Assembly: GCA_963768855.1 (NCBI GenBank)
Contig: CAVYJM010000006.1
Span: 608,001-672,000 of the forward strand
DNA: 64,000 nt
DNA from: an uncultured Thermoplasmata archaeon
GTDB lineage: Archaea > Thermoplasmatota > Thermoplasmata > RBG-16-68-12
Reading direction: 5' to 3'
This document shows positions 9,101 to 25,378 of this stretch, one piece after another. The notes beneath the pieces were generated by a model that was not told where the DNA came from, did no database searches, and worked only from the letters and a program-made list of their open reading frames with translations. Both the position numbers and the translations under genes were made by a program. Each line of letters opens with the position of its first letter. The stretch's first letter is position 1.

Positions 9101-9475
9101 CTACGGATCCTCGAGGACCAGGGTGGCCCGCCGGACGACGAACCCCCGTCCGCCTCGGAGCTCCAGGGCGGCCCCGCAATCCGGGCAGAGAGCGCGGGGC
9201 AGCTCGTGGCCGTGGCCCGTGGGGAGCTCGAAGGGTTTCGCGGCCTTGCAGGACGGGCACACGGCCGTGGCGGGTACCAGGGAGACCCGGAGGACCGCGC
9301 CGTCGAGGAGGGTGTTCGCCGCCTCCAGATCGAAGGCGGCCTGCAGCTCCTGCGGGTTCAGGCCCTCCAGCTGGCCGAGATCGATGTCGATCGCCTTGCA
9401 GCCGCTCGCGCCCCGCTGGTCCATCTCCGCCAGGACCACGCGGACGACCTGCTGGGCGATGACGGTTTCATGCAT
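9101..9475 (-). CDS. hypA: hydrogenase maturation nickel metallochaperone HypA
   Basis: N-terminal MHE, IDLGQLEG, two CxxC (CPSC, CPDC), GRGFVV. Confidence 0.92.
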   Translation of the reverse strand: MHETVIAQQVVRVVLAEMDQRGASGCKAIDIDLGQLEGLNPQELQAAFDLEAANTLLDGAVLRVSLVPATAVCPSCKAAKPFELPTGHGHELPRALCPDCGAALELRGGRGFVVRRATLVLEDP

Positions 9476-9689
9476 CGCCGGCGGCCTCGACCTCGTCCCA
9501 CGCCTCGAGGATCTCCTCCGCCTCCTTGCGCTCGACGGTCATCATCGCGACGCCGCCTTGCACGAGGAGATACTCGCCGACGCGCGTCTTCACGTGGCTC
9601 GCGTCGACCTCGCGCGTCCAGCCGCGGGAGGTGACGACGGCCTTCTTGCCGCGCATCTCGAGGACCTTGGCCGGAACGGTGAGACACAT
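9468..9689 (-). CDS. hypC: hydrogenase maturation chaperone HypC
   Basis: MCLTVPAKV N-terminus, VGEYLLVQGGVA, EAEEILEAW. Confidence 0.9.
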   Translation of the reverse strand: MCLTVPAKVLEMRGKKAVVTSRGWTREVDASHVKTRVGEYLLVQGGVAMMTVERKEAEEILEAWDEVEAAGDA

Positions 9690-9806
9690 TTCGGTGACCC
9701 CGATTCGGAGACCCTTTTCGGCTCCGTCCCAAATATACCATCTATATGTACAAAACGTTAGCGACGTTCAAGTCGAACGGACCCCGTCGAATTGGTCGGC
9801 GGGACT

Positions 9807-10373
9807 GTGATCGAAATCCGCTTCCATGGTAGGGGAGGCCAAGGCGCCGTCATCGCGTCGGAGCTCCTTGCGCAGGCCGCCTTCCTCGAAGGTAAGCATC
9901 CCCAGAGTTTCCCGTTCTTTGGAGTGGAGCGCCGCGGGGCCCCCGTGACCGCCTTCACCCGCATCGACGACGCACCGATCCAGATCCGCACCAGCATCAC
10001 CGAACCGGACATCGTCGTCGTCCTCGACGCCGGTCTGATGCGCACGATCAACGTCACCGCGGGACTCAAGTCCGACGGGCTGATCCTCGTCAACACCGAG
10101 AAGGCCCCGGAGAAGCTCGAGGTCGCGTTCAAGGGTCGCCTCTCCACGATCGACGCGACCCGGATCGCCCTGGACCACGGCCTCGGCTCGAAGGCCATGC
10201 CCATTGTGAACACGGCGGTCCTCGGAGCCCTCGCCCGCGTCAGCGGGATTGTGTCCCTGGACTCCGTGCGGAAGGCCGTCGAGCGCTTCGTCCCCGCAAA
10301 GCAGCAGGCGAACGTCCTCGCGGTGGACGATGCCTATCAGCAGGTCCTCTCCCTGACGGCGGTGGCCCCATGA
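9807..10373 (+). CDS. porG: pyruvate/2-oxoacid:ferredoxin oxidoreductase gamma subunit
   Basis: GTG 9807; [35 protein letters not shown]. Confidence 0.93.
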
Positions 10374-10645
10374 CGAAGTACGAGGTGGAGGAAGACCTCC
10401 CGGAGGCGCCCATCGCGACGACCCCGAGCGACGTGATCCACACCGCATCCTGGCGGACGTTCCGGCCCGTCATCGACCTAACTCTCTGCACGAAGTGCAA
10501 CGTCTGTTGGAAGTTCTGCCCGGACAACGCGATCGCGTTCGACGGCGTCGGCTACCCGGTCATCCGCCTGGACTACTGCAAGGGCTGCGCGATCTGCGCC
10601 GAGGAGTGCCGGCCCAAGGCGATCGTGATGGTCAAGGAGGAGTGA
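10370..10645 (+). CDS. porD: pyruvate/2-oxoacid:ferredoxin oxidoreductase delta subunit
   Basis: WRTFRPVIDLTLCTKCNVCWKFCPD and DYCKGCAICAEECRPKAI. Confidence 0.93.
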   Translation: MTKYEVEEDLPEAPIATTPSDVIHTASWRTFRPVIDLTLCTKCNVCWKFCPDNAIAFDGVGYPVIRLDYCKGCAICAEECRPKAIVMVKEE

Positions 10646-10647
10646 CC

Positions 10648-11823
10648 ATGACGGAGCTCGTCATCAGCGGGAACTACGCGCAGTCCTACGCCGCGAAGCT
10701 CGCGCGGGTCCATGTCGTCTCGGCCTACCCGATCACCCCTCAGACCTCGATCGTCGAGAAGCTTGCGGAGTTCGTGGCCTCCGGCCAGCTCGACGCGGAG
10801 TACATCAAGGTCGAGTCGGAGCACTCCGCGCTCCAGGCGTGCATCTCCGCGTCCGCCCTCGGCGCCCGCACGTACACGGCCACATCGAGCCAGGGTCTCC
10901 TGCTCATGCACGAGCTCCTGCACTGGGCGGCCGGTGCCCGGACGCCCGTCGTGATGGGCGTCGTGAACCGCGCCGTCGCGCCGCCCTGGTCCATCTGGAC
11001 GGACCACACGGACACCGTGGCGCAGCGGGACACGGGCTGGATCCAGTTCTACGGAGAGAGCAACCAAGAGGTCCTCGACACGACCCTGATGGCCTTCCGC
11101 CTCGCGGAGCACCCCGAGGTCCGCCTCCCTGCCATGGTCACGGAGGATGCGTTCTACCTCTCCCACACCGTCGAGCCCGTGGACATCCCCTCCCAGGAGG
11201 AGGTGGACCGGTTCCTGCCGCCGCGCGAACTCAGTTCCACGATCCGGGTCGGCACAGGCATGCGGCTCGGTTCCTTCACCGGACCCGACCTGTACATGGA
11301 GTTCCGCCACAAGATCGCGCGGGCGATGGGCCGCGCGCGGGACGTGTTCCTCGAGATCGAGGACGACTACGCGCGGATCACCGGGAGGAACCACGGCGGC
11401 CTCTTGCCCACCTACAGGACCGACGACGCGGACACCGTGCTGATCACGATGGGCACCGCGACGACGACCGCGAGGGGCGTCGTGGACGCGATGCGCGCGG
11501 ACGGCCACAAGGTCGGCCTCGCCAAGCTCCGCACGTTCCGTCCGTTCCCCGTCGAGGAGCTCCGGGACCTGGGGGCCGGCGTCGACCGGATCGGCGTGCT
11601 AGACCGTTCCTTCACGTTCGGGGCCGCGGGTGCGGCGTTCACTGAGGTCGCGGGCACCCTGTACTCGCTCCCGCAGCGGCCGATCCTGCGCGACTTCGTC
11701 GCGGGCCTCGGCGGTCGCGACATCACCGCCGCAACAGTCCAGGAGGCGTTCCTCGATCTCCTGACCCGGGACGGGCCGGAATCTGAATGGGTCGAGCTCA
11801 AGACCCGCCAGGGGGCGGCCTGA
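10648..11823 (+). CDS. porA: pyruvate/2-oxoacid:ferredoxin oxidoreductase alpha subunit
   Basis: SAYPITPQTSI, VESEHSA, TATSSQGLLLMHE, FRPFP, GLGGRDI. Confidence 0.95.
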   Translation: MTELVISGNYAQSYAAKLARVHVVSAYPITPQTSIVEKLAEFVASGQLDAEYIKVESEHSALQACISASALGARTYTATSSQGLLLMHELLHWAAGARTPVVMGVVNRAVAPPWSIWTDHTDTVAQRDTGWIQFYGESNQEVLDTTLMAFRLAEHPEVRLPAMVTEDAFYLSHTVEPVDIPSQEEVDRFLPPRELSSTIRVGTGMRLGSFTGPDLYMEFRHKIARAMGRARDVFLEIEDDYARITGRNHGGLLPTYRTDDADTVLITMGTATTTARGVVDAMRADGHKVGLAKLRTFRPFPVEELRDLGAGVDRIGVLDRSFTFGAAGAAFTEVAGTLYSLPQRPILRDFVAGLGGRDITAATVQEAFLDLLTRDGPESEWVELKTRQGAA

Positions 11824-11824
11824 C

Positions 11825-12715
11825 ATGGCCCGCCTGACGATCCCGGCCGAGGAGCTCATGCGGTCGGGCCACAGCGCATGCCCCGGCTGCGGCGCGACCC
11901 TCGTCATGCGCTACATGCTCAAGGGCCTCGGGAAGCAGACGATCGTGACCGTGCCGGCGTGCTGCTGGACCGTCATCGCGACGCCGTTCCCGACGACCGC
12001 GCTGGACGTGCCCATGCTCGACTGTGCGTTCGAGGCCACGGGCGCATCGATCTCCGGCCTGCGGGCGGCGGCGGACAAGCTGGGTCTGAAGGACGTGACG
12101 ATCGTCGGCTTCGCCGGGGACGGCGGCACGGCGGACATCGGGCTCCAGGCGCTGAGCGGCATGCTCGAGCGCCGGACGGACGGCATCTACGTCATGTACG
12201 ACAACGAGGCGTACATGAACACGGGCGTCCAGCGGAGCGGCGCGACGCCGGAGGGTGCCTGGACGACCACCACGCCCGTCGACGAGCTGTCCCACGGCAA
12301 GCTCGAGCCGAAGAAGGACATCATGGCGATCGTCGCGGCGCACCGGCCTGCCTACGCGGCGACGGTCAACGTCGCGTTCCCCGAGGATTTCGTCAAGAAG
12401 GTGCAGAAGGCGAAGGCGATCCACGGCTCTCGATTCATCCACGCGCTCGCACCCTGCCCTCCCGGGTGGCGGTATTCCTCCGAGAAGACGATCGAGGTGG
12501 GCCGCCTCGCGACGGACACGAACATCTTCCCCCTCTATGAAATCGAGAACGGGGTCTACCGCATCACGCGCAAGCTCGGCGTCGCGAAGCCCGTCCAGGA
12601 GTACCTCCGGACACAGGGGCGGTTCGCCCACCTGGGCGAGACGGAGGTCGCTCAGATCCAGGCCGAGGTCAACGCAGCCTGGAAGCGGCTGGTCGCGCTC
12701 GAAGGCCTCGCGTGA
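11825..12715 (+). CDS. porB: pyruvate/2-oxoacid:ferredoxin oxidoreductase beta subunit
   Basis: GHSACPGCG, GDGGTADIGLQALSG, YDNEAYMNTGVQRS, PCPPGW. Confidence 0.95.
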   Translation: MARLTIPAEELMRSGHSACPGCGATLVMRYMLKGLGKQTIVTVPACCWTVIATPFPTTALDVPMLDCAFEATGASISGLRAAADKLGLKDVTIVGFAGDGGTADIGLQALSGMLERRTDGIYVMYDNEAYMNTGVQRSGATPEGAWTTTTPVDELSHGKLEPKKDIMAIVAAHRPAYAATVNVAFPEDFVKKVQKAKAIHGSRFIHALAPCPPGWRYSSEKTIEVGRLATDTNIFPLYEIENGVYRITRKLGVAKPVQEYLRTQGRFAHLGETEVAQIQAEVNAAWKRLVALEGLA

Positions 12716-12834
12716 TCGGCTTGCAGGGAACGGTGGGATGAGCCCGCGGGCAGGTCGTTCCGCAAGTACCCACGTTCTCAGGTACGGTCAATCGCACCGA
12801 AACCTTAAACAGGGGTCGGGCCAACTCCGCCTCC

Positions 12835-13413
12835 ATGTCTTCTCCACCCCCTGGTGGCCCGCAGACCCCTCCGCCATCGTACCCGCCGCAGTATCCGCAG
12901 CAATACCCGCCGCAGCAGCCTTACTATGCGCAGCCCGCGGCCCCACCGCCGAAGAAGTCGAACACGGCGCTGATCGTCGTCCTGGTCGTCGTCGTGGTGA
13001 TCGTGGTCGTTGCCGTGATGGCCTGGTGGGTCTTCACCTCCCTCATGGCTCCGGTGAACAACGCCCAGAACGTCACGGTCACGGGGGTCAGCTGGACGGT
13101 CGACTATCCCGGCTCCGTCAGCTACTTCGGCACGTCCCCGCTGACGACCTGCAGCACCTGCCCGATCCACGCCACGATCTACAGCCCGTTCAACTACGTC
13201 CTGTCGCTGACGAACTCGGACTCGTCGTCGCACAACGTGACGGACATCACCCTCTCCGGGTTCCAGTTCACGATCGTGAGCACGACCCCGACGATCACCT
13301 CGGGGTCCCCCTTGGTGTTCACCGCAGGTCAGACCCGGTCCATCACGCTGAGCATCCAGGTGACGCCGCTGACCGGCAACGGAGTGATGACGGGAACGAT
13401 CACGACGACCTGA
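12835..13413 (+). CDS. single-pass membrane protein with P/Q/Y-rich N-terminus and beta-rich external domain
   Basis: PPQYPQQYPPQQPYY tract, KKSN followed by a poly-Val TM helix, Thr/Ser-rich domain with one CxxC. Confidence 0.78.
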   Translation: MSSPPPGGPQTPPPSYPPQYPQQYPPQQPYYAQPAAPPPKKSNTALIVVLVVVVVIVVVAVMAWWVFTSLMAPVNNAQNVTVTGVSWTVDYPGSVSYFGTSPLTTCSTCPIHATIYSPFNYVLSLTNSDSSSHNVTDITLSGFQFTIVSTTPTITSGSPLVFTAGQTRSITLSIQVTPLTGNGVMTGTITTT

Positions 13414-13444
13414 TCCCATCGCGCGTCCGGCCCGTCGCCGCGGC

Positions 13445-13606
13445 TCACGCCTGGCCGACGAGCTCGAAGCCTCCGAAGGCCACGGCCGGCACGTAGGCAC
13501 AGCTCGGCGAGCCGTAGAACGCGTCGCGGGCTTCCAACTCGAGGTCGCCGAACTCGGCTCCGGCGGCCTCGAGTGCGCGGAGGACGGCGGAGAATGTGTC
13601 GGCCAT
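13445..13606 (-). CDS. small hypothetical protein (53 aa, absent from the ORF track)
   Basis: Hand translation MADTFSAVLRALEAAGAEFGDLELEARDAFYGSPSCAYVPAVAFGGFELVGQA; GC3-biased; directly downstream of hycI on the same strand. Confidence 0.5.
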   Translation of the reverse strand: MADTFSAVLRALEAAGAEFGDLELEARDAFYGSPSCAYVPAVAFGGFELVGQA

Positions 13607-13655
13607 GGTACGGCTCCCGCGCGGCGCAGGCCGGACGTCACTGAAGCGGTTTGCC

Positions 13656-14210
13656 TCACAGGGCGTGGGATTCGCGGTCCGCCTTCTTCGCGGGCTTCCG
13701 GGCCCTCGTCCGAGGCTCGCCCAGGACGTGGAAGACGCTCACGAGGAGGTGGGCCAATCCGGCCTGCTCCGGTCCCGCGGGGGTGAAGCCCTGCGCATCG
13801 AGGTCCGGTTGGATCCCCACGAGGCTCACCCGGGCTCCCGTGTCCTTCTCGAGGAACTCCATGACCACAGAGAGCGGGAGGGCGTGCGTCGAGAGGAGGG
13901 TCGCCCGGATCTCGTTCGGCTCGACGAGGGCCACGGCCCCCGGCCGGGCGCCCATGTCGGCGGCGTCCAGCAAGAGGACCGCGTCGGGCTTGAACCGCCG
14001 GATTGGGCCCGTCACGCTCTCCGGGACGGTCCCGGCGAGGAACACGCGGACGTTCGGCAGGTGGAGCCCCTCGACCTCCTTCGCGGCGAGCATGCCGAGG
14101 CGGTCGTGGACGTTCAGCTCATCCCCGACGCCGACGACCGCGATGCGCTTCGCTTCCCCCAACCGCCGGCGGAGCCGCAATTCGAAGTCGTGCTGGGCGA
14201 TGTACGTCAC
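13656..14210 (-). CDS. hycI: hydrogenase maturation endopeptidase (HycI-type)
   Basis: GTGA overlap start at 14210; IAVVGVGDEL..DRLG, GTVPES, LLDAADMG..PG, STHALPL, LVGIQP. Confidence 0.9.
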   Translation of the reverse strand: MTYIAQHDFELRLRRRLGEAKRIAVVGVGDELNVHDRLGMLAAKEVEGLHLPNVRVFLAGTVPESVTGPIRRFKPDAVLLLDAADMGARPGAVALVEPNEIRATLLSTHALPLSVVMEFLEKDTGARVSLVGIQPDLDAQGFTPAGPEQAGLAHLLVSVFHVLGEPRTRARKPAKKADRESHAL

Positions 14211-14572
14211 TTCACCACGACGGTCTTGTCCGGTCCAGAGCCGCTGAACGCGTTCGTCAGGTAGATGGCTTTCGGGTCCGTGGGGCAGTACTCCTCGCAC
14301 AGCCCGCAGCGGATGCAGAGGAAGAGCTCGACCTCGGGCTTCTTCTTGCGGATGATCTTCTTGCCCTTGACCTCGACCTCGCGCTCGTTCGCGACCATCG
14401 TGATGCACTGCGTCGGGCACACGACCGCGCACTTCGAGCAGCCGATGCACTTCTCGTCGAGGATCGCGATCTTCCCGCGGAACGCCGGCGGGATGACGAC
14501 CTTCTCCTTCGGGTACCGCGTCGTGCTGGGCTTGTGCGTCAGGTTGTCGAACATCTCCCGCAAGACGCTCAT
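14207..14572 (-). CDS. 2x[4Fe-4S] subunit (NuoI/EchF/MbhN-like)
   Basis: TTRYPKE..FRGK, CIGCSKCAVVCP and CIRCGLCEEYCP. Confidence 0.92.
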   Translation of the reverse strand: MSVLREMFDNLTHKPSTTRYPKEKVVIPPAFRGKIAILDEKCIGCSKCAVVCPTQCITMVANEREVEVKGKKIIRKKKPEVELFLCIRCGLCEEYCPTDPKAIYLTNAFSGSGPDKTVVVK

Positions 14573-15543
14573 CCGCTCACCCACCAGTAGTAGTTCATGA
14601 CCAGGACGAGCGCGACCTGGATGATCGCGGCGCTCGCGAGGTACTTCCACCCGATGTCGTTGAGCTGGTCGATCCGGATGCGCCCGGTCGCGACCTTGAT
14701 CGAGGACAGGACGAGGAGGATGGCCAGAGTCTTCGCGAAGAACACGAGGAACCCGACGATCCATCCGAACCAGTTCGGGGTGATCGCCCACGGGATCAGG
14801 GGGCCGCCCAGGAAGAGGGCCGCCACGAGGGCGCTGCCCACGACCAGGCTCACGTCCATCGTGAGCTTCATCAGGGCGAGGCGCCGGCCCGTGAGCTCCG
14901 TCGTCGGGCCTGCCACGATCTCCGTCTCCGCCTCGGGGATGTCGAAGGGGGTGCGCTCGAGCTTGGCCTGGAGGCCAATCAGCGCGACGATGAACCCGAT
15001 CGGCTGGAGGATCGCGAACCAGTAGTGCCCCTGCTCCCAGGTGACGATATCCGAGATGGACCAGCTACCCGCCATGAGCGCGGGGGCGAGGAGCGCGAGG
15101 AAGAACGGCACCTCGTAGATGAACATCTGCGTCACGGCGCGGACGCCGCCGATCGTCGAGTAGACGTTCCGGCTGAGCCAGCCCAGGAGGAACAGGACGA
15201 TTGTCGGGAGGGTCAGGAGGTACAGCACGAGGACCAGGTCGCCCTGGAACGCGAGGGGGCTGTTCCCTACGATGGGCACGTACAGGAACGCGGTCATCAC
15301 GGCCGCCAGGGCGAGGATCGGGGCGAAGTCGAAGGCCTTGCGGTCGACGCCATCCGGGTCGATGACCTCCTTCCCGAGCATCTTGATGAAGTCCGCGAAG
15401 GGCTGCAGGAGGGGCGGGCCGACTCGGTTCTGCATCCTCGCGGCGATCTTCCGGTCGAGGAACTGGAAGAAGAACGCGTATGTCAGGAGGAACAGGAACC
15501 CGGGGAACACGAGGAGGTAGACGACCTCGAGGATCGGGTCCAT
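14569..15543 (-). CDS. membrane anchor subunit (NuoH/EchB/MbhM-like)
   Basis: DRKIAARMQNRVGPP..QPFADFIKML.KE, AKLERTPFDIPEAETEIVAG..TE; 8 TM. Confidence 0.93.
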   Translation of the reverse strand: MDPILEVVYLLVFPGFLFLLTYAFFFQFLDRKIAARMQNRVGPPLLQPFADFIKMLGKEVIDPDGVDRKAFDFAPILALAAVMTAFLYVPIVGNSPLAFQGDLVLVLYLLTLPTIVLFLLGWLSRNVYSTIGGVRAVTQMFIYEVPFFLALLAPALMAGSWSISDIVTWEQGHYWFAILQPIGFIVALIGLQAKLERTPFDIPEAETEIVAGPTTELTGRRLALMKLTMDVSLVVGSALVAALFLGGPLIPWAITPNWFGWIVGFLVFFAKTLAILLVLSSIKVATGRIRIDQLNDIGWKYLASAAIIQVALVLVMNYYWWVSG

Positions 15544-16724
15544 CAGCGTCGCCCCCGTGCGCGGTAGAAGGCGCGTCCGTGCTCGCTCAGCTCATCCCAG
15601 GTCATCTCGCCCACCTTCCGCCCGCGCTCGTTGACCACCGTGATCCGGGAGGTGCACGAGAGGCAGGGGTCGATCGCCGCGACGACCACGGGGATGTCCG
15701 CGAGGTTCTGGTTCACCAGGCTCACCGCCACGGAGGTCCAGTTCGCCAGGCTCGGGGTACGGATGTCGAGGCGCTCGACCTTGTCCGTGTTGTTCGTGCG
15801 GATGAAGTGGACGAGCTCACCGCGGGGCGCCTCATAGCGCGAAAGGATCTCCGCCTTCGGCGCGGCCCGGGGCGGGGGCGTCCGGATGGGTCCCGCCGGG
15901 AGGTTCTCGAGGCAGTACCGCACGATCTGGAGGCTCTGCTGGAGCTCGCCGATCCGGACCAGCGTCCGGCCGTAGACGTCTCCGTGGGTGTCCGAGACGA
16001 CCTTCCACGGCACCTCCGCGTAGGCGATGTACGGGTCGTCGTGGCGGACGTCGAACTGGATGTCGCTCGCCCTCGCCGTCGGCCCGACCGTCCCGAACTT
16101 CAGGGCCTGCTCCTTCGTGAGCTTGCCGACGCCCTTGAACCGCATGAGGACGGTCTGCTCGTTGTTCACCATCTGGCCGTAGCCGGTGATGCGCCGCTCC
16201 AGCTTGGGCAGGCGATCGAGCGCCGCCTTAATCTGGTCCGGGGTGACGTCCCGGCGGACGCCGCCGACCTCGTTGATCCCGTGGTTCACCCGGTTCCCAG
16301 TCAGCTCTTCGAGCATGTCCAGGACGGACTCGCGGTCCCGCCAGCTCCACATGAAGAGGGTGTTGAACCCGACCTCGTGGCCCGCGACGCCGAGCCAGAG
16401 CAGGTGGGAGTGCATCCGCTCGAGCTCCGCGACGATTGTGCGGATGTACTGCGCCCGCGGCGGGATCTGGAGCTTCATCGCTTCCTCGATCCCCTTCACG
16501 AAGACCGTGGCGTGGGAGTGAGAGCAGATCCCGCAGACGCGTTCCAGGAGGGGCACGACGCGGACGAAGTCCCGCGCCTCGGCGGCCTTCTCGATGCCGC
16601 GGTGGTTGTAGGAGATGTCCAGCTCGAGGCGGACGATCTTCTCGCCGTCCGCGACGACCTTGAAGTTCACGGGCTCCTTGAGGGCCGGGTGCTGCGGCCC
16701 GACGGGCACGATGACCTCGGCCAT
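15543..16724 (-). CDS. group 4 [NiFe]-hydrogenase large subunit (NuoD-homologous)
   Basis: GPQHPALKEP, HRGIEK, L1 motif ERVCGICSHSH, L2 motif IDPCLSCTSR followed by a roughly 33-aa cleavable C-terminal tail. Confidence 0.95.
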   Translation of the reverse strand: MAEVIVPVGPQHPALKEPVNFKVVADGEKIVRLELDISYNHRGIEKAAEARDFVRVVPLLERVCGICSHSHATVFVKGIEEAMKLQIPPRAQYIRTIVAELERMHSHLLWLGVAGHEVGFNTLFMWSWRDRESVLDMLEELTGNRVNHGINEVGGVRRDVTPDQIKAALDRLPKLERRITGYGQMVNNEQTVLMRFKGVGKLTKEQALKFGTVGPTARASDIQFDVRHDDPYIAYAEVPWKVVSDTHGDVYGRTLVRIGELQQSLQIVRYCLENLPAGPIRTPPPRAAPKAEILSRYEAPRGELVHFIRTNNTDKVERLDIRTPSLANWTSVAVSLVNQNLADIPVVVAAIDPCLSCTSRITVVNERGRKVGEMTWDELSEHGRAFYRARGRR

Positions 16725-17207
16725 CTACCTCGCCTCCTCGTGGACTCCGCCGTAGAACCGGTTCGGGTCCATCTTCCAGTCCTTCCGCAGCGGGAACTCG
16801 TTGGCGGGCCAGTCCTCGTTCAGGATGATCCGCTTCAGGGCGGGGTGGCCCCGGAAGGTGATCCCCAGGAGGTCGTGGATCTGGCGCTCGTAGATCCCGG
16901 CCGGCGGCAGGAGGTCCGACGTGGTCGGCGCCTCGGGCCGGTCCCGCGGCAGCTCGATGGCCAGGGCCACGATCATCCGGTGGGGTCCGCTCAGGTGGTA
17001 GATGAGCTCGAACGTCTTCCCGTTGTCCGCGGCCGCGATCTGGACGAGGTGGTCGCACCCGAGGATGGACTGGGTCCGCAGGATCGCCTCCCGCACCTTC
17101 TCGACCGTCGTCGTGACCTTGGTCCGGTTCCACCGAACCTGCTCGACGGTCCCCAGGTCGCTGAGGGCCTCCTTCACGGTCTCCACCTTCAGGGAGGTCT
17201 CCGTCAT
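16725..17207 (-). CDS. NuoC/EchD-like subunit
   Basis: ELIYHL, PTTSDLLPPAGIYERQIHDLLGITFRGHP.LKRIILNEDWP..EFPLRKD. Confidence 0.9.
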   Translation of the reverse strand: MTETSLKVETVKEALSDLGTVEQVRWNRTKVTTTVEKVREAILRTQSILGCDHLVQIAAADNGKTFELIYHLSGPHRMIVALAIELPRDRPEAPTTSDLLPPAGIYERQIHDLLGITFRGHPALKRIILNEDWPANEFPLRKDWKMDPNRFYGGVHEEAR

Positions 17208-17722
17208 GCCGTCACCTCCGCGGGCTTCGCTGCGCTGGGCGGGATCTCCACCGTCTTCTTCTGGCGCCAGGCCTTGCCGCCGTGGTCGAGGTCCCCCTTC
17301 AGGAGGCCCAGGCACGCGACGACGCCGTCGATGATCTCGTCGGGTCGCGGCGGGCAGCCCGCGATGAACACGTCGACCGGGATGACGTTCTCGACGCCGT
17401 CCACGACGTGGTACAGGCCGCGGAAGACGCCGCCGGAGGCGCCGCAGGCCCCCATCGCGATCACGTACTTCGGCTCGGGCATCTGCTCCCAGATCCGCCG
17501 GAGCCGGGACGCCTGCTTCTTCGTCACGGGGCCCGTGACGATCAGGACGTCCGCGTGGCGGGGCGAGCCCTGGGCCACGATGCCGAAGCGCTCGACGTCG
17601 AAGCGCGGCGTCAGGGTCGCGATGACCTCGATGTCGCACCCGTTGCAAGCGCCGCTGTTGAACACCGTGATCCACGGAGACTTTACTCGGGCCCAGTTTG
17701 CGAGACGCTGACTCAGGGTCAT
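17204..17722 (-). CDS. [NiFe]-hydrogenase small subunit (NuoB/EchC-like)
   Basis: NSGACNGCDIEV, SPRHADVLIVTGPVT, PEPKYVIAMGACGASGG, VDVFIAGCPPRP. Confidence 0.94.
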   Translation of the reverse strand: MTLSQRLANWARVKSPWITVFNSGACNGCDIEVIATLTPRFDVERFGIVAQGSPRHADVLIVTGPVTKKQASRLRRIWEQMPEPKYVIAMGACGASGGVFRGLYHVVDGVENVIPVDVFIAGCPPRPDEIIDGVVACLGLLKGDLDHGGKAWRQKKTVEIPPSAAKPAEVTA

Positions 17723-18048
17723 TGTTCCCACCTCAGGATCATGATGGCGACCGCGACGACGCCCAGGTAGCCCACGGCCGCCCACGGCAGGATGTCGTGC
17801 GGCATGGTGGCGAGCACGAGGGCCGCCACGTGGACGAGCGTGAAGAACAGGGCGACGTAGAAGAACTGGTAGCCCGGCTGGAACGCCTGCGCGACGGCGG
17901 GCTCCCCGCCGACGTACGGCATGCGCTTGTCCCCGCCGCCCGCCGGCGTCGGCGCGATCGTGCGGGACCAGAAATACATCAGGTACCCGATCGCGATGGC
18001 AATGCCGAAGATGACGAACGGGGAGGTCAGGATGTCCGCGGTGGTCAT
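17719..18048 (-). CDS. NuoA-like 3-TM subunit
   Basis: TM, then loop KRMPYVGGE (compare NuoA K..PYECG), then YQFFYVALFF and 2 more TM; lies immediately upstream of the NuoB-like gene. Confidence 0.72.
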   Translation of the reverse strand: MTTADILTSPFVIFGIAIAIGYLMYFWSRTIAPTPAGGGDKRMPYVGGEPAVAQAFQPGYQFFYVALFFTLVHVAALVLATMPHDILPWAAVGYLGVVAVAIMILRWEQ

Positions 18049-19581
18049 TCAGTGCACCCCCCAGAAGGCGGTCAGGCCTTGTGCGGCTTTGCTAATCCAA
18101 TCGAAGAGGGTCTGCGGGAAGAGGCCCAGGTAGACCGTCACGATCGCGAGGATCGCGATGCCCGCGGACGTGCTCAGGGGCAGCTTCGCCTCGCCGCCGT
18201 CCGCGGCCGCGACGGGCGCCACGTGGGCCGCGTCGTGGCCCTGGAACAGGAGCGTGGACAGGATCGGCACGTAGTAGCCGAGGGAGAGCGCGCTGTTCGC
18301 CGCGAGGATGAGGGCGAGGAGCACGCCGCCGAGGACGTCCGTGGCCATGCCCGCCTGGAAGACGAGCAGCTTGCCCAGGAAGCCCGCGGTCGCCGGGACG
18401 CCGACGAGGCCCAGGATGAAGATCGTGAACGCCACGCCGACGACGGGATGGCGGGCGCCGAGGCCCCGCATCTTCGCCGTCTCGGGGGATCCGGCCGCGG
18501 CGGTGAACAGGTCCGCCGCGAGGAAGGCACCGCCCTTCATCACGCTGTACGCGACCGCATAGAAGAGCCCGGCCTCGAACCCGAGGAGGAGGCTGTACTG
18601 GATCCCGATCCCGAATCCCAGGAGGATGTATCCCATCTGAGCGACGCTCGAGTAGGCGAGCACGCGACGGAGGTCCTTCTGGTTCAGGGCGAGGAGGTTG
18701 CCCACGGTCATCGTCAGGACGGCGAGGACGCAGACCGCGACCCCGAGGAAGGTCTGTGACACCGCGGTCGGCGGCAACACGGACAGGGAGACGAGCAGGG
18801 CGACGAGGGCGCCCGCCTTCGTGGCGCCCGCCATGATGGCGGTCACGCCGCCCGGGGCGTGCGTGTAGGCGTCCGGCAGCCAGGTGTGCAGCGGGACGAT
18901 CGCGAGCTTGACGCCGTAGCCGAGGAGGATGAGGACCGCTGCGAGGCCGAGCAGGAACGGGTCCGCGTTCACGAGGGCGAGCCGCAGGCCGGAGATCGTC
19001 AGGGTGCCGCTGCCCGCGACGCGGCTGCTCGCGAGGTACAGGAGGGACACGCCCAGGAGGGCGGTCACCGTGCCCGTCACGCCCTGCACGAGGTACTTCA
19101 GCGCGGCGCTCAGGGAGCGCGGCTCCTCGCGGTACCGGTACGCCACGAGGGCGTAGGACGGGATCGCGCTGAGCTCGACCATCACGAAGACCGTGAACAG
19201 GTCGTCCGCGAACCCGACCGCCGTCGCGCCGGCAAGGGCGAACAGGAAGAGCGGGTAGTAGAGGTGGACCGGCCCGTCCGGGGCGATGCGGCCCTGGGAG
19301 GCGAACGCCGCCAGGGAGCCGAGCCCCGTGGCCAGGAGACCGACGATCAGCCCGAGGTACGACGGGGCGAGGATCGGGGCGAAGACGGAGCCGCCCGAGG
19401 ACGGAAAGCCGAGGTCCACCGCGTACAGGAGGAGGCCGAAGGCGGCCGCCAGCCAGGCGGCGGCCATCGCACCGGTCCAGCGGCGGAACCGCGGGCCGAC
19501 GAGCTTCGCGAAGAGGTACGCCTCGACGCCGCCGATCGCGATGAAGAGCGGCACGAAGAAGGCGAGGTCGGCGGCGTTCAC
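18049..19581 (-). CDS. antiporter-like subunit (NuoN/MrpD family)
   Basis: GTG 19581 overlaps the reconstructed upstream stop; VMVELSAIPSYALV, ALKYL, GYGVKLAIVPLHTWLPDAY, NQKDLRRVLAYSSVAQMGY, GVPATAGFLGK. Confidence 0.85.
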   Translation of the reverse strand: MNAADLAFFVPLFIAIGGVEAYLFAKLVGPRFRRWTGAMAAAWLAAAFGLLLYAVDLGFPSSGGSVFAPILAPSYLGLIVGLLATGLGSLAAFASQGRIAPDGPVHLYYPLFLFALAGATAVGFADDLFTVFVMVELSAIPSYALVAYRYREEPRSLSAALKYLVQGVTGTVTALLGVSLLYLASSRVAGSGTLTISGLRLALVNADPFLLGLAAVLILLGYGVKLAIVPLHTWLPDAYTHAPGGVTAIMAGATKAGALVALLVSLSVLPPTAVSQTFLGVAVCVLAVLTMTVGNLLALNQKDLRRVLAYSSVAQMGYILLGFGIGIQYSLLLGFEAGLFYAVAYSVMKGGAFLAADLFTAAAGSPETAKMRGLGARHPVVGVAFTIFILGLVGVPATAGFLGKLLVFQAGMATDVLGGVLLALILAANSALSLGYYVPILSTLLFQGHDAAHVAPVAAADGGEAKLPLSTSAGIAILAIVTVYLGLFPQTLFDWISKAAQGLTAFWGVH

Positions 19582-22500
19582 GCGCCCACCCCCAGGAGGA
19601 CCGCGGCGAGGACCACGACGAGCGCGCCTCCGAAGGCGACCATGTTCCAGTTCACGTCGCGGTTCTCCAAGCCCCATCGCCCGCTTGCCGAGGGCGAACA
19701 GGCCGAGGGCCGCGTCCGTCGCGCCTTCATAGACGAGGCGGAAGCCGGACTGCATCGCGGCGCTGAATCGCACGAAGCCCCGGCCGCCCGCGGCGTACGC
19801 GACGTCGACGTCCTTGAGGCGGGTGTCGTGCGGTGCGAGGACCGTACGGCCGATCGTGAAGAAGAAGGCGGCCGCGAGTCCGAGGACGAGGAGGCTCGTG
19901 CCCAGCTGGAGGGGCGCCCAGGCGTTCCAGACGCTCGGGACGGCCGCGGGCAGGATGTTGTAGAGCATCTGCGGGTACACGCCGATCGCGATGCACAGGG
20001 CCGCGGTGCCGAGCATGGCGGCCTGCATCGGCAGGGGCGGGTCGGAGGCCTCCGTCACGCCGCCCGCGGGCGCGGGCCGCAGGAACGTGAACCAGCCGAG
20101 TTTCAGGAAGGAGAGGAACGTCCCGAAGGACGCGATCTCGAGGAGGATCCACAGGTAGACGTTGACGTCCTCCGCCGCGAAGATGACCATGCCTTTCGAG
20201 ATGTAGCCGTTGAAGAGGGGCACGCCCGAAATGGAGAAGGCCGCGATCCAGAACGCGATCGCCGTGATGGGCATCTTCTTCTGGAGCCCGCCGAGGCGGT
20301 TCATCGTGTTCTCGCCCGTCTTCCAGATGACCACGCCGATCGTCATGAACAGGAGGGCCTTGTACAGGATGTGGTTGAAGACGTGGGCCATGCCGCCGTC
20401 CAGGCCGAGGACGCCCCACTCGTCCGCCATGCCGAGCCAGCCCGCGAGGCCGACCCCGGCGATCATGTAGCCGACCTGGGAGACGATGTGGTACGACAGG
20501 AGGCGGCGCATGTTGTTCTGGAACACCGCGAACGACACGCCGTACACGGCCATGACCGCGCCCATGATCGCGATCGCCTCGAAGGCGGGCTGCGGGTCCA
20601 GCTGGCCGATGAACATCCGTGCGAAGACGTAGACCGCGGTCTTCGTCGTGTAGACGCTCAGGAAGACGCTCGCGACGAAGTGCGCCCGCGGATAGGCGTC
20701 GGGAAGCCAGGAGTGGAGCGGGATGAAGGCCGCGTTCAGGCCGATGCCGAGGCAGATGAGGAGGGAGGGCCAGAACCCGGAGACCACGCCGACGGGCAGG
20801 AAGTTCTGTCCGGCGGGCATCTGCATGAACAGGAGCGCGATGCCGCCGCCCAGGAGGGCGCCGCCCGCGACATGGTACAGGAGGTACCGGAAGCCCGCTT
20901 TGATGCCGTCCTCGCCGCCCTGCATGATGAGCAACGTCGACGTGATGGCCATGAGCTCCCAGAAGAACAGGAGCGTGACCCAGTCCCCTGCGAACACGGC
21001 CCCGAGGGAGGTGCCCGCGTACAGGAGGGCGAACAGGTGCATCCACGGCTTGCCGAAGCCCGCGGCATAGAGGACCGCGAGGAACGTGATGATGCCGAAG
21101 ATGAGCCCGGTCAGGTAGGACAGGCTGTCGACCGTCATCAGGGTGAGCTGGTAGCCCATGAAGGGCAGCTGCCACTGGGCTCCCATGGGCAGGAAGATGA
21201 CGTCAAGGAGGGCCACGCCCGCCAGGATGATGAGGCCAATTTGGCGGGCACGGCCCTTGAGCAGGAGGACGAGGGGCCCGCCGATCAGGAAGATCAGGAA
21301 GGGCGGCACGGCGGTCCCCGTGATGATCGAGCCCATCGCGGGCGGGATCCAGGTGGCGACGCCGGTGGCCCCCTGGACAACGCTCGTCCCGATCGCGCGG
21401 GCGATCTCGAAGAAGCCGTAGGGCATCGAGGTCCAGAGGCCCAGGAGGACGGCGCCCGCGGCGGTGATGATGAGGGGGACGGCCAGGGTGGGCCGCGCCT
21501 CGCCGAGCTCGCCCTCGTAGGGGCGGAAGAACGCGCGGATGATGATCGGGAGCCAGTAGCCGAGGTTCAGGACGCTCGAGAGGACGAGGATGAGGGGGAT
21601 CCACCAGAAGCCCGCGTTCCAGGCGCCGACGGAGATGAACCACTTCGCGACGAAGCCCGCCATGGGAGGCAGGGCGACCATGCTCAGGGCGGCGAGGGTG
21701 AAGGCCACGAACTCCCGCGGCATCTTCTTGCCGATCCCGTCGAGCTGGGAGATCTTCGTCTTCCCCGTCTCCACGGCGACCGCGCCCGCGACGAAGAACA
21801 TGGTCAGCTTCCCGAAGGCGTGGGCCGCGATCGCGAAGGTCGTGCCGACGACGAGGGCGAACATGCCGTCCGCCGTGGAGCCGCCGACGGCCAATGGGAC
21901 GAGGAGGGCGGCGCCCAGGGTGATATAATTGAGCTGGCTGATCGTCGAGTACGCGAGCCGCATCTTGAAGTCATCCTGGACGAGCGCCAGCAGGGAGCCG
22001 CCGATTACCGTGACCGAGGCGGCGATGATCACGAGCCACTGTAGATTCAGGCCGACCATGAGGGTGGGCCCGAACAGGAAGAAGATGAGCCGCAGGATGC
22101 CGAAGACGCCCGCCTTGACGACCGCCACGGCGTGCAGGAGGCCGCTCACCGGCGTGGGCGCGATCATCGCGCTCGGCAGCCAGCCGTGCATGGGCATGAT
22201 CGCGGCCTTGACGCCGAAGCCGGCGAACAGCAGGACGAACCCGAGGCGGGCGAGGTCCGGGGCGATCGCCCCGATGGCCACGTTGCCGCCTGCGATGAAC
22301 GAGAGGGAGACGGAGCCGCCGAGGCCCTGGAGGAGCATCATGCCCGCGAGGATCGCGACGCCGCCGCTCAGGGTGTAGATGAGGTACTTGCGGCCCGCCG
22401 CGAACGCCTCCTCGCTCTCCTTGTGGACGACGAGGGGATACGTGGCGACGGTCAGGATCTCATAGAACAGGAAAAGGCTGAACAGGTTCGAAGACAGGGC

Positions 22501-22884
22501 GACGCCCATGGTCGCGCCGATGACGATGGCGAAGCACGCGTAGTAGCGCGTCTGGGCGTGCTCTTTGAGCCCGCGCATGTAGCCGATGCTGTAGACCGTG
22601 GTCAGGATCCAGAGGAACGAGGCGAGGACGGCGAAGAGCAGTCCGAGTCCGTCCGCGGTGAGCTGGAGGCTCAGGCCGAGGAACATGACCACTTCCGGTG
22701 TGGACGTCGGCGTGCCCGCGAAGACTGCGGGGAGCGCGAAGGCCGCGAACAGGAACGTCAGGAGGGCGGCCACGAGGGACGCCGCCTCGCGGAGATTCGG
22801 CCGGTTCCGGAACACGAGGACGAGGTACGCCCCGAGGAAGGGCGTGAGGACCGTGAGGAGGAGGACCCACTGGTTCAGATCCAT
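19578..22884 (-). CDS. double antiporter-like subunit (two MrpD/NuoL-M modules fused), with a 1-nt indel near 19673
   Basis: Two complete modules (FGVKAAIMPMHGWLPSAM..PTPVSGLLHAVAVVKAG and LNAAFIPLHSWLPDAYPRAH..SVFLSVYTTKT) in one frame. Removing one C of CCCC 19672-19675 restores the C-terminus LENRDVNWNMVAFGGALVVVLAAVLLGVGA-stop at 19578. Confidence 0.78.
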
Positions 22885-23207
22885 CAGAGGTCACCTCCGC
22901 GGATCTTCTGCGTGATCGAAGCGATGTCCAGGGTGCCCCAGGTGCGCTTCGCGAGGATCACCAAGGCGAGGGCGACCCCCGCCACGACCGCCTCGATGAT
23001 GATCAGGGTGAAGACGACGGCCTGGGACGTGCCCACGTCCCCGTTCAGGTAGCCGGCCGTCACGAAGACGAGGCTGACCCCCTTGCCGAGGATCTCGAGG
23101 CCGATGATCATCTTGACGAGGTGCGTGCGGGAGATGAGGCAGACGAGGCCGATCGCGAACAGGGCGCCCGCGACGGTCAGCAGGACGAGGGCCTCAGGCC
23201 CGATCAT
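22884..23207 (-). CDS. NuoK/MrpC-like subunit (chain 4L)
   Basis: ALFAIGLVCLISRTHLVKMIIGLEIL, QAVVFTLIIIEAVVAGVALAL..RTWGTLDI. Confidence 0.88.
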   Translation of the reverse strand: MIGPEALVLLTVAGALFAIGLVCLISRTHLVKMIIGLEILGKGVSLVFVTAGYLNGDVGTSQAVVFTLIIIEAVVAGVALALVILAKRTWGTLDIASITQKIRGGDL

Positions 23208-23446
23208 GGGCTCGCCTCCCGGGTGCGGCGGGAGCCGAGCAGGAGCAGGATCGCGACGACGCCGCCGAGCAGGATCACGCTCTGGAGGAGGACCTCGAAG
23301 GTCCGGTCCTGCCACATCGCGACGCCCACGCCCGTGACGGTCGGGCCCGCGGCGGGCCACAGGATCGCGCCGGGGAGGACCGCGTAGACGAGGAGACCGA
23401 GGAAGGCCAGGCCGATGACGATCCCGGCGACGAGCTTGCCGTTCAT
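23204..23446 (-). CDS. NuoJ C-terminal half-like subunit (J2)
   Basis: 81 codons with ATGA overlaps on both sides; GVAMWQDRTFEVLLQSVILLGGVVAILLL resembles the NuoJ C-terminal helix. Confidence 0.72.
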   Translation of the reverse strand: MNGKLVAGIVIGLAFLGLLVYAVLPGAILWPAAGPTVTGVGVAMWQDRTFEVLLQSVILLGGVVAILLLLGSRRTREASP

Positions 23447-23706
23447 GCGGGCACCTCCCGCTCCTCGCCGCCGGCGAGGATGAGCGCCACGAGGAACAGC
23501 ACGGCCACGAGGCCTGCGCCGACGGTCAGCTCGAGCGCGCCCGCGAAGGGCGACGCGAGGAGGAAGAACAGGGCCGCCAGGAACGCGCTCGCGAGCGCGT
23601 ACGCCACGACGGACCGCACGAGGTTCTTCAGCCCCACCGCGACGATCGCCATGCCGACTGCCGCCGCCCCGAGGACGGCCATCAGAACTAGCTCCAGCTC
23701 CGCCAT
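23443..23706 (-). CDS. NuoJ N-terminal half/MbhD-like subunit (J1)
   Basis: AIVAVGLKNLVRSVVAYALASAFLAALFFLLASPFAGALELTVGAGL; first gene of the operon. Confidence 0.8.
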   Translation of the reverse strand: MAELELVLMAVLGAAAVGMAIVAVGLKNLVRSVVAYALASAFLAALFFLLASPFAGALELTVGAGLVAVLFLVALILAGGEEREVPA

Positions 23707-23751: not shown

Positions 23752-23762
23752 ACTATAAACGC
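23752..23762 (-). promoter_or_regulatory. TATA-box candidate for the hydrogenase operon
   Basis: Minus strand reads gcgTTTATAgtc about 50 bp upstream of ATG 23706; the same cgTTTATA occurs upstream of the gene at 51483. Confidence 0.5.
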
Positions 23763-24322: not shown

Positions 24323-25378
24323 ATGGAGAGCCGGAAAATCCAGAAAGTAGGCGCAGCCACATTGACCATCTCCCTCCCCAAGGAGTGGGTCACCCAGCGG
24401 AACCTGAAGAAGGGGGACCAGGTCTTCATCGTCGAGGAGGGCGACTCCCTCCGCATCCTTCCCGGGCCCGCCATGGAGGAGCGGAAGCGGAAGTGGGAGA
24501 CCTACGTGATCGACGCGGATCTGTGCGACGAGCCCGGCCTGCTCGAGCGGATCATCGTCGGGAACTACGTGCTCGGCCGGCAGAAGATCATCGTCCGCTC
24601 GGCGACGCGGCTGCGGAGCGAGCACATCGAGGAGGTCCGGAAGACCTCGAAGAAGCTCATGGGCCTCGGGATCATCGAGGAGACCTCCAGCAAGATCACC
24701 CTCCAGTGCGCCCTCGACCCGGCCAACTACCCGCTGGACGCGCTCGTGAAGCGCCTGTACAACCTCGGCGCGACGATGCTCGAGGAGGCGATCGAGGCCC
24801 TCGTGACGGGCGACCGCCGCCTCGCGGAGGACGCGATCAAGCGCGAGGACGACGCGGACATGATGTACTGGCTCATCCTGCGCCTCGTCCTGAGCGCCCA
24901 GGTCGACGAGGCGCTCGTCGAGCTGCTCGGGATGCGCTCGCGCCTCGAGATCGCCGGGTACCGCGTGATCGCGCGGGACCTGGAGACCGTCGCGGACTAC
25001 TGCGAGACGATCGCGCGGTCCGTGATCCAGCTCCTCGACATGAAGACGGAGATCAGCCCGTCCTTCGCGAAGCAGATCAAGGAGCTCGCCGACGCGGTCA
25101 CGGAGATCTACAGCAAGGCGATCGGAGGCCTGCTTTCGCGGGACATCAAGCAGGCGAACGACGCAATCCGCATGCAGGAAGCCATCGTCAAGCGGGAGCA
25201 CGACCTCGTGCGGATGATGCTCAAGGACTACGACGACACGAAGGTGATCATCCCGCTCCGCACGATCCTGGGCGGGATCGTCGAGATGTCCGAGTACGGG
25301 AACTCGATCGCGGTCATCGCGTTCAACCGCTACCTCGAGAAGCCGACGAACCTGAGCCGCCCCGCGCCGCCGGCGTGA
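24323..25378 (+). CDS. phoU: archaeal phosphate-uptake regulator (AbrB/SpoVT + PhoU domains)
   Basis: MESRKIQKVGAATLTISLPKEWV AbrB-like N-terminus; PhoU repeats (REDDADMMYW, RDLETVADY). Confidence 0.88.
   Translation: MESRKIQKVGAATLTISLPKEWVTQRNLKKGDQVFIVEEGDSLRILPGPAMEERKRKWETYVIDADLCDEPGLLERIIVGNYVLGRQKIIVRSATRLRSEHIEEVRKTSKKLMGLGIIEETSSKITLQCALDPANYPLDALVKRLYNLGATMLEEAIEALVTGDRRLAEDAIKREDDADMMYWLILRLVLSAQVDEALVELLGMRSRLEIAGYRVIARDLETVADYCETIARSVIQLLDMKTEISPSFAKQIKELADAVTEIYSKAIGGLLSRDIKQANDAIRMQEAIVKREHDLVRMMLKDYDDTKVIIPLRTILGGIVEMSEYGNSIAVIAFNRYLEKPTNLSRPAPPA

Follow-up and report, generated by a model that had tools for sequence, protein, structure and literature searches.

Examining a 64,000-nucleotide (nt) stretch of DNA from an uncultured Thermoplasmata archaeon (GenBank assembly GCA_963768855.1, contig CAVYJM010000006.1, positions 608,001 to 672,000), hereafter the window, we found a minus-strand operon at 13656-23706 (all positions being those of the whole stretch) whose twelve products are probably a membrane-bound [NiFe] hydrogenase of group 4 and of the Mbh lineage, together with its own HycI-type maturation protease. 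The predicted enzyme has no Mrp-type Na+ module; it has three antiporter modules and a NuoA-like subunit, and because these are present its parts list is that of the eleven-subunit complex I core. The operon and its candidate promoter element are laid out as follows, with the basis of each assignment in brackets.

23754-23759, minus strand: TTTATA box, candidate archaeal promoter element (about 50 nt upstream of the J1 start; conspicuous against 68% G+C)
23443-23706, minus strand: J1, MbhD-like or like transmembrane helices (TM) 1-3 of NuoJ, 87 amino acids (aa) (Pfam and profile against the Protein Data Bank, PDB)
23204-23446, minus strand: J2, two-helix membrane protein in the position of MbhE or NuoJ TM4-5, 80 aa (mainly position)
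22884-23207, minus strand: K, NuoK/MrpC/MbhG-like, 107 aa (Pfam Oxidored_q2, E-value 4e-18)
19578-22884, minus strand: L+M, fused double antiporter-like subunit, about 1100 aa without one extra base (Pfam Proton_antipo_M and Proton_antipo_N)
18049-19581, minus strand: N, NuoN/ND2-like antiporter subunit, 510 aa, GTG start (best PDB matches NuoN and NdhB)
17719-18048, minus strand: A, NuoA/ND3-like three-helix subunit in the position of MbhI, 109 aa (Oxidored_q4 and PDB profile)
17204-17722, minus strand: B, hydrogenase small subunit, NuoB-like, 172 aa (Pfam Oxidored_q6, E 6e-34)
16725-17207, minus strand: C, NuoC-like, 160 aa (Pfam Complex1_30kDa, E 5e-27)
15543-16724, minus strand: D, [NiFe] large subunit, 393 aa (Pfam Complex1_49kDa and NiFeSe_Hases)
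14569-15543, minus strand: H, NuoH/MbhM-like membrane anchor, 324 aa (Pfam NADHdh, E 1e-84)
14207-14572, minus strand: I, 2x[4Fe-4S] ferredoxin-like subunit, NuoI/MbhN-like, 121 aa (Fer4 families; two CxxCxxCxxxCP motifs)
13656-14210, minus strand: HycI-type large-subunit maturation endopeptidase, 184 aa, last gene (NCBIfam)

All twelve genes are translationally coupled, each junction being a 4-nt or 1-nt overlap or a direct abutment, with GGAGG-type ribosome-binding sites upstream of operon genes, and they run in the order J1-J2-K-(L+M)-N-A-B-C-D-H-I-hycI. K, the three Proton_antipo_M modules, B, C, D, H, I and HycI match Pfam or NCBIfam families strongly (E 1e-18 to 1e-142), while the matches of J1 and A lie under the curated cut-off; the protease reaches 69 bits on TIGR00072, above cut-off, and 90 bits on TIGR00142 (hycI), under cut-off. 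An earlier note on this DNA, made from the letters alone, had described these genes in this order as a single tightly coupled operon, closed by hycI, with three antiporter modules and with hypA and hypC nearby, and on each of these points the junctions and family matches bear it out. Rfam gave no match in the window.

The catalytic subunits

Evaluating the large subunit for the hallmarks of a [NiFe] active site, we found that D carries the RVCGIC (L1) and DPCLSCTSR (L2) motifs, which align with those of HycE, HyfG and EchE, together with the catalytic glutamate in HPALKEP and a 32-aa C-terminal tail after DPCLSCTSR that resembles the tail of HycE. Both metal motifs (as RVCGIC and DPCLSC) and a cleavable tail had been read from the sequence in the earlier note, and the motif alignment and the tail agree with that reading. 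Compared with PDB chains, D scores 292 bits on MbhL, 279 on HycE, 206 on NdhH, 201 on Nqo4 and 181 on MbsL. The cluster motif of B is C-x-x-C as in HycG and HyfI, in contrast to the CC of NuoB, and the genome's own NuoD is without the Ni-Fe ligands, the catalytic glutamate and the tail. Orthologues of D keep both motifs and tail, with a rough ratio of nonsynonymous to synonymous substitution rates (dN/dS) of 0.19-0.44, and D evolves under purifying selection.

The remainder of the group 4 set is complete, comprising a NuoB-like subunit with one [4Fe-4S] site, a NuoI-like 2x[4Fe-4S] subunit, a NuoC-like and a NuoH-like subunit, and the antiporter-like subunits. D is unfused, and the operon holds no HyfA-type or formate dehydrogenase gene.

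The membrane arm

All eleven families, NuoA, B, C, D, H, I, J, K, L, M and N, are represented, with A and J weak as single sequences and J2 assigned by position only. J1 matches Oxidored_q3 (E 2e-7) and MbhD (E 9e-3) in Pfam, both under cut-off, and its profile against the PDB finds MbhD (3e-9), MbsD (8.5e-8) and residues 6-79 of Escherichia coli NuoJ (3e-6). J2 has no sequence match in Pfam, NCBIfam or the PDB; it is conserved in relatives, with R48, E51 and Q55 invariant, and hhalign gives a weak match to residues 99-155 of E. coli NuoJ (E 0.021, probability 2%). K matches E. coli NuoK over its full length (2.4e-8) and MbhG over part of it (2.6e-8), and H scores 139 bits on NdhA, 135 on Nqo8, 120 on MbhM and 86 on HycD.

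Subunit A falls under cut-off for Oxidored_q4 (E 1.6e-3) as a single sequence, and 12 of its 13 orthologues match PF00507 individually. A profile built from A orthologues finds Nqo7 (3e-4), NuoA (8e-4) and ND3 in the PDB along the whole length, including the conserved loop motif K-x-M-P-Y-x-G-G-E, and finds no MbhI chain at E-values up to 10. The NuoA-like gene proposed in the earlier note is upheld by these matches, and the A-, J- and K-like genes are not confined to resemblances with MbhI, MrpB and MrpC, since A matches NuoA rather than MbhI.

Turning to the antiporter modules, module 1 of L+M has a NuoL/MrpA-type N-terminus, and modules 1 and 2 both have MbhH and MrpA as their best PDB matches, while N scores 168 bits on mycobacterial NuoN, 147 on NdhB and 137 on MbhH. 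Modules 1 and N keep the TM5 glutamate and the TM7, TM8 and TM12 lysines of proton channels. An AlphaFold2 model of module 2 from a congeneric locus (L038; predicted local distance difference test score, pLDDT, 71) has a 48-residue helix at 504-551 followed by a helix at 559-576, and the best Foldseek matches of this model are the lateral-helix bearers MrpA, MbhH, NdhF and NuoL, such that the predicted end of module 2 is a long lateral helix followed by one final transmembrane helix. In the published view, the length of the lateral helix is said to scale with the number of antiporter modules that it clamps.

Families of the Mrp-type module were sought as well, and neither MrpE nor MrpG (PF01899, PF03334) was found anywhere in the genome, the MrpF and MrpB families not having been searched genome-wide; the absence of an MrpE/F/G module that the earlier note had recorded holds for MrpE and MrpG to this extent. 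No gene lies between J2, K and L, and the coupled genes leave no room for MbhF.

As assembled, L+M and N form one 1611-aa open reading frame (ORF) with three Proton_antipo_M stretches, two of them in the L+M part. Related loci (L008, L009, L011, L015 and L023) have a fused L+M of about 1095 aa and a separate N in another frame. Alignment with the DNA of a congeneric genome shows that the window has one surplus base at about 19667-19670, followed by 100 nt of near identity, and it is in the +1 frame of the window that L+M's conserved last helix (ENRDVNWNMVAF...GVGA, then stop) is encoded. With the surplus base discounted, the stop codon of L+M is a TGA (19578-19580), overlapping the GTG (19581) from which N starts. 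The 1611-aa ORF thus appears to be an artefact of this one base, for which an assembly error and a real recent mutation are both possible. That L, M and N are natively one fused protein is rejected, as the relatives and the conserved out-of-frame helix argue otherwise. The earlier note had listed a fused L+M and a separate N, as in the relatives; in the window as assembled the two read as one ORF.

Gene order and relation to known enzymes

Reading along the operon, the matching chains of the Pyrococcus furiosus Mbh structure (PDB 6CFW) lie in their letter order D, G, H, L, M, and A, B, C and I occupy the places of MbhI, MbhJ, MbhK and MbhN. The gene order is that of mbhD-E-G-H-I-J-K-L-M-N minus mbhA-C and mbhF, with MbhH expanded to three modules and J split like MbhD/MbhE. 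Because the operon follows the letter order of these chains, the simplest reading would be an Mbh-lineage operon, without the Na+ module, that has gained antiporter modules and with them a complex I-like arm. The earlier note had read the same order as nuoA-N circularly permuted. Formally this holds, but it is not the only description, as the order is also that of Pyrococcus mbh. J1, moreover, scores better on MbhD than on NuoJ.

Comparison with P. furiosus Mbh (HydDB 4d) yields the best structure match for D, J1 and modules 1 and 2, the same letter order as mbhD-N, the same division of NuoJ into two small proteins and, presumably, the same donor, ferredoxin. Mbh differs in possessing an Mrp-type Na+ module, MbhA-C (MrpEFG), and MbhF (MrpB), and in having one antiporter subunit (MbhH), whereas the operon encodes three, including a NuoN-like one, and adds a NuoA-like subunit. 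With complex I and the Fpo-like 11-subunit complexes the operon shares the same eleven families, its H, N and A scoring best or equally well on complex I chains; unlike them it keeps the Ni-Fe ligands and a CxxC small subunit, and it has another gene order and a split J. E. coli hydrogenase 4 (Hyf, HydDB 4a) resembles it in having three antiporter-like subunits (HyfB, D and F), a [NiFe] large subunit and a HycI-type tail, but the Hyf large subunit is fused to a NuoC domain, Hyf has HyfA and a formate link, it is without a NuoA-like subunit, its HyfE replaces the split J plus K, and it is distant in the large-subunit tree. In gene content, then, the operon differs from Mbh, Ech and Hyf.

Separately, the genome encodes a canonical complex I, its genes arranged as in nuo and NuoM present twice, with subunits only 28-35% identical to those of the operon. 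An origin of the operon as a recent copy of this complex I is rejected on account of these low identities. At the canonical locus (L042, G000:C12:60000-79000), the two NuoM-like genes are adjacent (about 12417-15492), as in a '2M' complex I.

Distribution and phylogeny

Homologues of D number in the thousands in the databases. In more than 120 clusters the identity is at least 72%, and their sources label them 'membrane-bound hydrogenase subunit alpha' or 'NADH-quinone oxidoreductase subunit D'. Operons with the complete order are found in metagenome-assembled genomes (MAGs) of Thermoplasmata, in Methanoregula/Methanoregulaceae MAGs (D 73-78% identical) and in one Planctomycetota MAG (67%), with D identity across these same-order operons ranging over 57-95%. 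Its occurrence is patchy, amounting to 4 of the 12 genomes of the window's own genus, a handful of 301 sampled Thermoplasmata (a tally that includes two unpublished genomes, G098 and G212, neither of which underlies any particular claim) and 9 of 61 sampled Methanoregulaceae.

In the large-subunit tree (IQ-TREE), the family forms a clade of its own with 100% support in the Shimodaira-Hasegawa-like approximate likelihood ratio test (SH-aLRT), and HycE, HyfG and EchE fall outside it. Methanogen D sequences nest within the Thermoplasmata diversity, which points to transfer between co-occurring Thermoplasmata and methanogens. In the tree, two-module forms are interspersed among three-module ones. 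The next clade consists of two-module operons of the same order from other Thermoplasmata families (at one of these, L043, the upstream neighbours are unrelated to Mrp), alongside the second, paralogous operon of one Methanomicrobiales MAG and an Asgard sequence (P0131), with EchE, HycE/HyfG and NuoD further out. The nearest representatives at 50% identity are uncharacterised MAG proteins of Bacillota, Bathyarchaeota, Asgard, Moorella and Anaerolineales.

Several loci merit description in their own right. In the Methanomicrobiales MAG (L009:13102-21176, minus strand), the second, divergent operon is built like the first (L, M, N, A, B, C, D, H, I) and stands tail to tail with it, and relative to the window its D is 47% identical, its L and M modules 66%, and its N, A and C 35-37%. 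In Methanoregula (L011:166-2337, L012:129-2333 and other loci), an Ech-like cluster of small subunit, large subunit (42% identity) and ferredoxin subunit lies directly upstream of the operon. Comparing L010 with L008 (and likewise L017, L022 and L041), D, H and I are 67-78% identical while K, the long antiporter and N are 32-46% identical, with two versus three modules, and it seems from these identities that the distal membrane arm evolves, or is exchanged, as a separate block. Beside the family in a FastTree phylogeny stand P0182, P0195 and P0217, from Bacillota MAGs and unnamed sources, which have lost all Ni-Fe cysteines and the catalytic glutamate; these may be Ehr-like derivatives, or their placement may be a long-branch effect.

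Genomic neighbourhood

Genes downstream of the operon include two maturation genes and an oxidoreductase cluster.

9101-9475, minus strand: hypA (Pfam HypA, E 4e-20)
9468-9689, minus strand: hypC (Pfam HupF_HypC, E 1e-17)
9792-12715, plus strand: 2-oxoacid:ferredoxin oxidoreductase, four genes (gamma, small delta-like, alpha, beta) (Pfam POR, POR_N, PFOR_II and TPP_enzyme_C; the delta-like ORF, 10370-10645, from the ORF map)

The oxidoreductase genes lie between hypA/hypC and the operon, convergent with the latter, and are a plausible local source of reduced ferredoxin. Between them and the operon, a 192-aa protein (12835-13413, plus strand) has a Pro/Gln-rich N-terminus, one hydrophobic helix and a Thr/Ser-rich domain, and belongs to no Pfam family. 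On the other side, and divergent from the operon across a 616-nt AT-richer spacer, a gene at 24323-25378 (plus strand) encodes an AbrB/MazE-type DNA-binding domain fused to PhoU domains and is a candidate regulator of the operon.

Proposed working and alternative readings

Drawing on gene content, motifs, conservation, synteny and distribution, we propose a working scheme of which the electron donor, direction, ion and stoichiometry are predictions. Reduced ferredoxin, for example from the adjacent 2-oxoacid:ferredoxin oxidoreductase, would donate electrons to the two clusters of I, from which they would pass to the single cluster of B and on to the Ni-Fe site in D, where protons would be reduced to H2. 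Changes at the D/B/H/A interface would travel by way of H, A, J1/J2 and K into the antiporter modules, and these would translocate H+ or, possibly, Na+. We expect the reaction to be reversible.

Several points weigh against this scheme. Module 2 has an invariant asparagine at the position of the TM7 lysine. The frameshift as assembled replaces the last helix of L+M and fuses L+M to N and, if genuine, might leave this organism with an impaired enzyme. Between ferredoxin and H+ much less energy is released than between NADH and quinone, such that a forward pump with four channels would be hard to power unless H2 is very low. Donor, direction and ion are predictions for the family as a whole. Lastly, a search of this genome, which is 93.6% complete, found no HypD, HypE, HypF or HypB above cut-off, while control genomes respond to it; of nine further Thermoplasmata carriers seven lack HypD, and HypF was not found in any of the 5 carriers tested. 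For the ferredoxin-driven, H2-evolving pump with a full complex I-like arm that the earlier note had envisaged, the parts list of the arm stands, whereas the direction towards H2 is a prediction and the energy span looks too small for four channels to be driven forward at ordinary H2 levels.

Considering direction first, the enzyme could instead run in reverse, with the membrane potential driving electrons from H2 onto ferredoxin as in Eha, Ehb and Ech of methanogens; we regard this as unlikely overall but as the strongest of the alternatives, and give the same weight to its corollary that many channels would provide a high H+/2e- ratio and so allow ferredoxin to be reduced at trace H2. Orthologues (71-75% identity) occur in the 9 of 61 sampled Methanoregulaceae, which are H2 consumers, the Methanoregula operon directly adjoins its Ech-like cluster, and general energetic considerations favour many channels in the uphill direction. 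The reverse direction has also been proposed by Loh et al. for Hfo, a complex I-like hydrogenase of Bathyarchaeia (PMC7886697). In the Thermoplasmata genome, by contrast, the neighbour of the operon is a ferredoxin-producing 2-oxoacid oxidoreductase and no other hydrogenase large subunit was found, and for these two reasons H2 evolution is favoured there, getting rid of excess reductant being a better fit to this setting than the uptake of H2.

A second question is how, or whether, the metal centre is made. In the Hyp machinery, HypC, HypD, HypE and HypF serve to build the Fe(CN)2CO group, and HypA and HypB to supply Ni. Genomes without HypD are this one (G000) and its relatives G128, G214, G256, G092, G274, G250 and G304, the relatives being five same-family carriers (77-98% complete), one further genome of the order and an RBG_19FT Thermoplasmata MAG, and genome incompleteness cannot explain an absence in eight genomes. 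HypD is present in two order-level carriers (G114 and G184), in the Methanoregula genomes and in the Planctomycetota genome. Every HypD-less carrier examined keeps the four cysteines, the catalytic glutamate, the tail and the in-operon protease.

Given these features, that D belongs to a real [NiFe]-hydrogenase, as the earlier note had stated outright, is likely, resting as it does on the ligands, the glutamate, the tail and HycI; we infer this rather than assert it, mainly because HypD, HypE and HypF, which serve to build the Fe(CN)2CO centre, were not found in the genome. A bolder proposal is that the Ni-Fe centre is built without HypD, HypE and HypF, with HypA, HypC and HycI kept, in an enzyme that combines a three-antiporter complex I-type arm with the mbh order. 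We consider this proposal doubtful, if somewhat more credible than the loss of hydrogenase function set out next; were it true, the enzyme would model the step from Mbh to complex I better than any other living one, with reversible, high H+/2e- gearing.

The complex of the HypDEF-less Thermoplasmata might not be a working [NiFe] hydrogenase at all, being either a relic or an enzyme with another metal site or acceptor, as in Mbs, Ehr and Fpo-like complexes. Such a reading would account for the missing HypD, HypE and HypF here and for the missing HypD or HypF in most Thermoplasmata carriers, and the FastTree neighbours P0182, P0195 and P0217 without the four cysteines and the frameshifted L+M of the assembly would fit it. 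We nevertheless judge it improbable, as the known non-hydrogenase relatives have lost the cysteine, glutamate, tail and protease features that HypD-less carriers keep, D is under purifying selection, and hypA and hypC are retained. Least credible, and ruled out by gene content, is an ordinary 14-subunit Mbh (HydDB 4d) or a Hyf/Ech enzyme read over-generously, for although MbhL (D), MbhD (J1) and MbhH (modules 1 and 2) are the best structure matches and the letter order is that of mbh, the MrpE and MrpG families were not found in the genome, there is no space for MbhF, three antiporter modules stand against one, A and N match NuoA and NuoN, H scores higher on NdhA/Nqo8 than on MbhM, and the unfused D, the lack of a HyfA-type or formate dehydrogenase gene and the position of HycE, HyfG and EchE outside the clade speak against Hyc/Hyf.

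Published parallels

The nearest published parallel to a Mbh-lineage hydrogenase with a complex I-type arm is Hfo (group 4g-6), described in 2021 as a [NiFe] hydrogenase made from eleven complex I parts (PMC7886697). Hfo is without the Mrp sodium module, NuoEFG and FpoF, awaits biochemical characterisation and has been put forward as linking hydrogenases with complex I, its direction being proposed as gradient-driven reduction of ferredoxin by H2 (PMC7886697). Compared by description only, the operon is like Hfo in its eleven complex I-type families, its [NiFe] large subunit with L1 and L2 motifs and its lack of an Mrp module and of NuoEFG/FpoF; it is unlike Hfo in that the latter's gene order is reported as that of Fpo/Nuo, A-B-C-D-H-I-J-K-L-M-N (PMC7886697), whereas the operon has the order given above, running from J1 to hycI, with J split and two antiporter modules fused. 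Asgard groups 4j-4q, reported in 2024, are likewise complex I-like [NiFe] hydrogenases, of which 4j, 4m, 4p and 4q are predicted to reduce protons (bioRxiv 10.1101/2024.07.04.601786), and in these four groups a complex I-like build with predicted proton reduction resembles our operon, again compared by description only. Group 4g is considered a polyphyletic catch-all in the literature.

That the operon stands near a hydrogenase-to-complex I intermediate was suggested in the earlier note, but for such enzymes the idea was already published (PMC7886697; bioRxiv 10.1101/2024.07.04.601786). For an operon family with mbh order, split J, a fused double antiporter, interleaved two- and three-module forms and a spread over Thermoplasmata and Methanoregula, we found no description in the searchable literature, and no characterised relative of the family was found. 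A [NiFe] hydrogenase with the complex I parts list is a design spread widely among uncultured archaea and a concept known since 2021 and 2024, while the particular form of this family appears undescribed.

Significance

Membrane-bound hydrogenases are regarded as the ancestors of complex I, and enzymes of mixed features are the sole living evidence for the intermediate steps. The family described here has three ion channels and NuoA-, NuoN- and NuoH-like subunits of complex I type alongside the mbh gene order and a split NuoJ, and its close relatives with two or three antiporter modules form a natural series for how channels were added. The HypDEF gap, if confirmed, bears on how Ni-Fe centres can be built. 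Carriers are common among archaea of peat, soil and aquifers, methanogens included, and in these organisms the enzyme may set the coupling between ferredoxin and H2 at very low H2.

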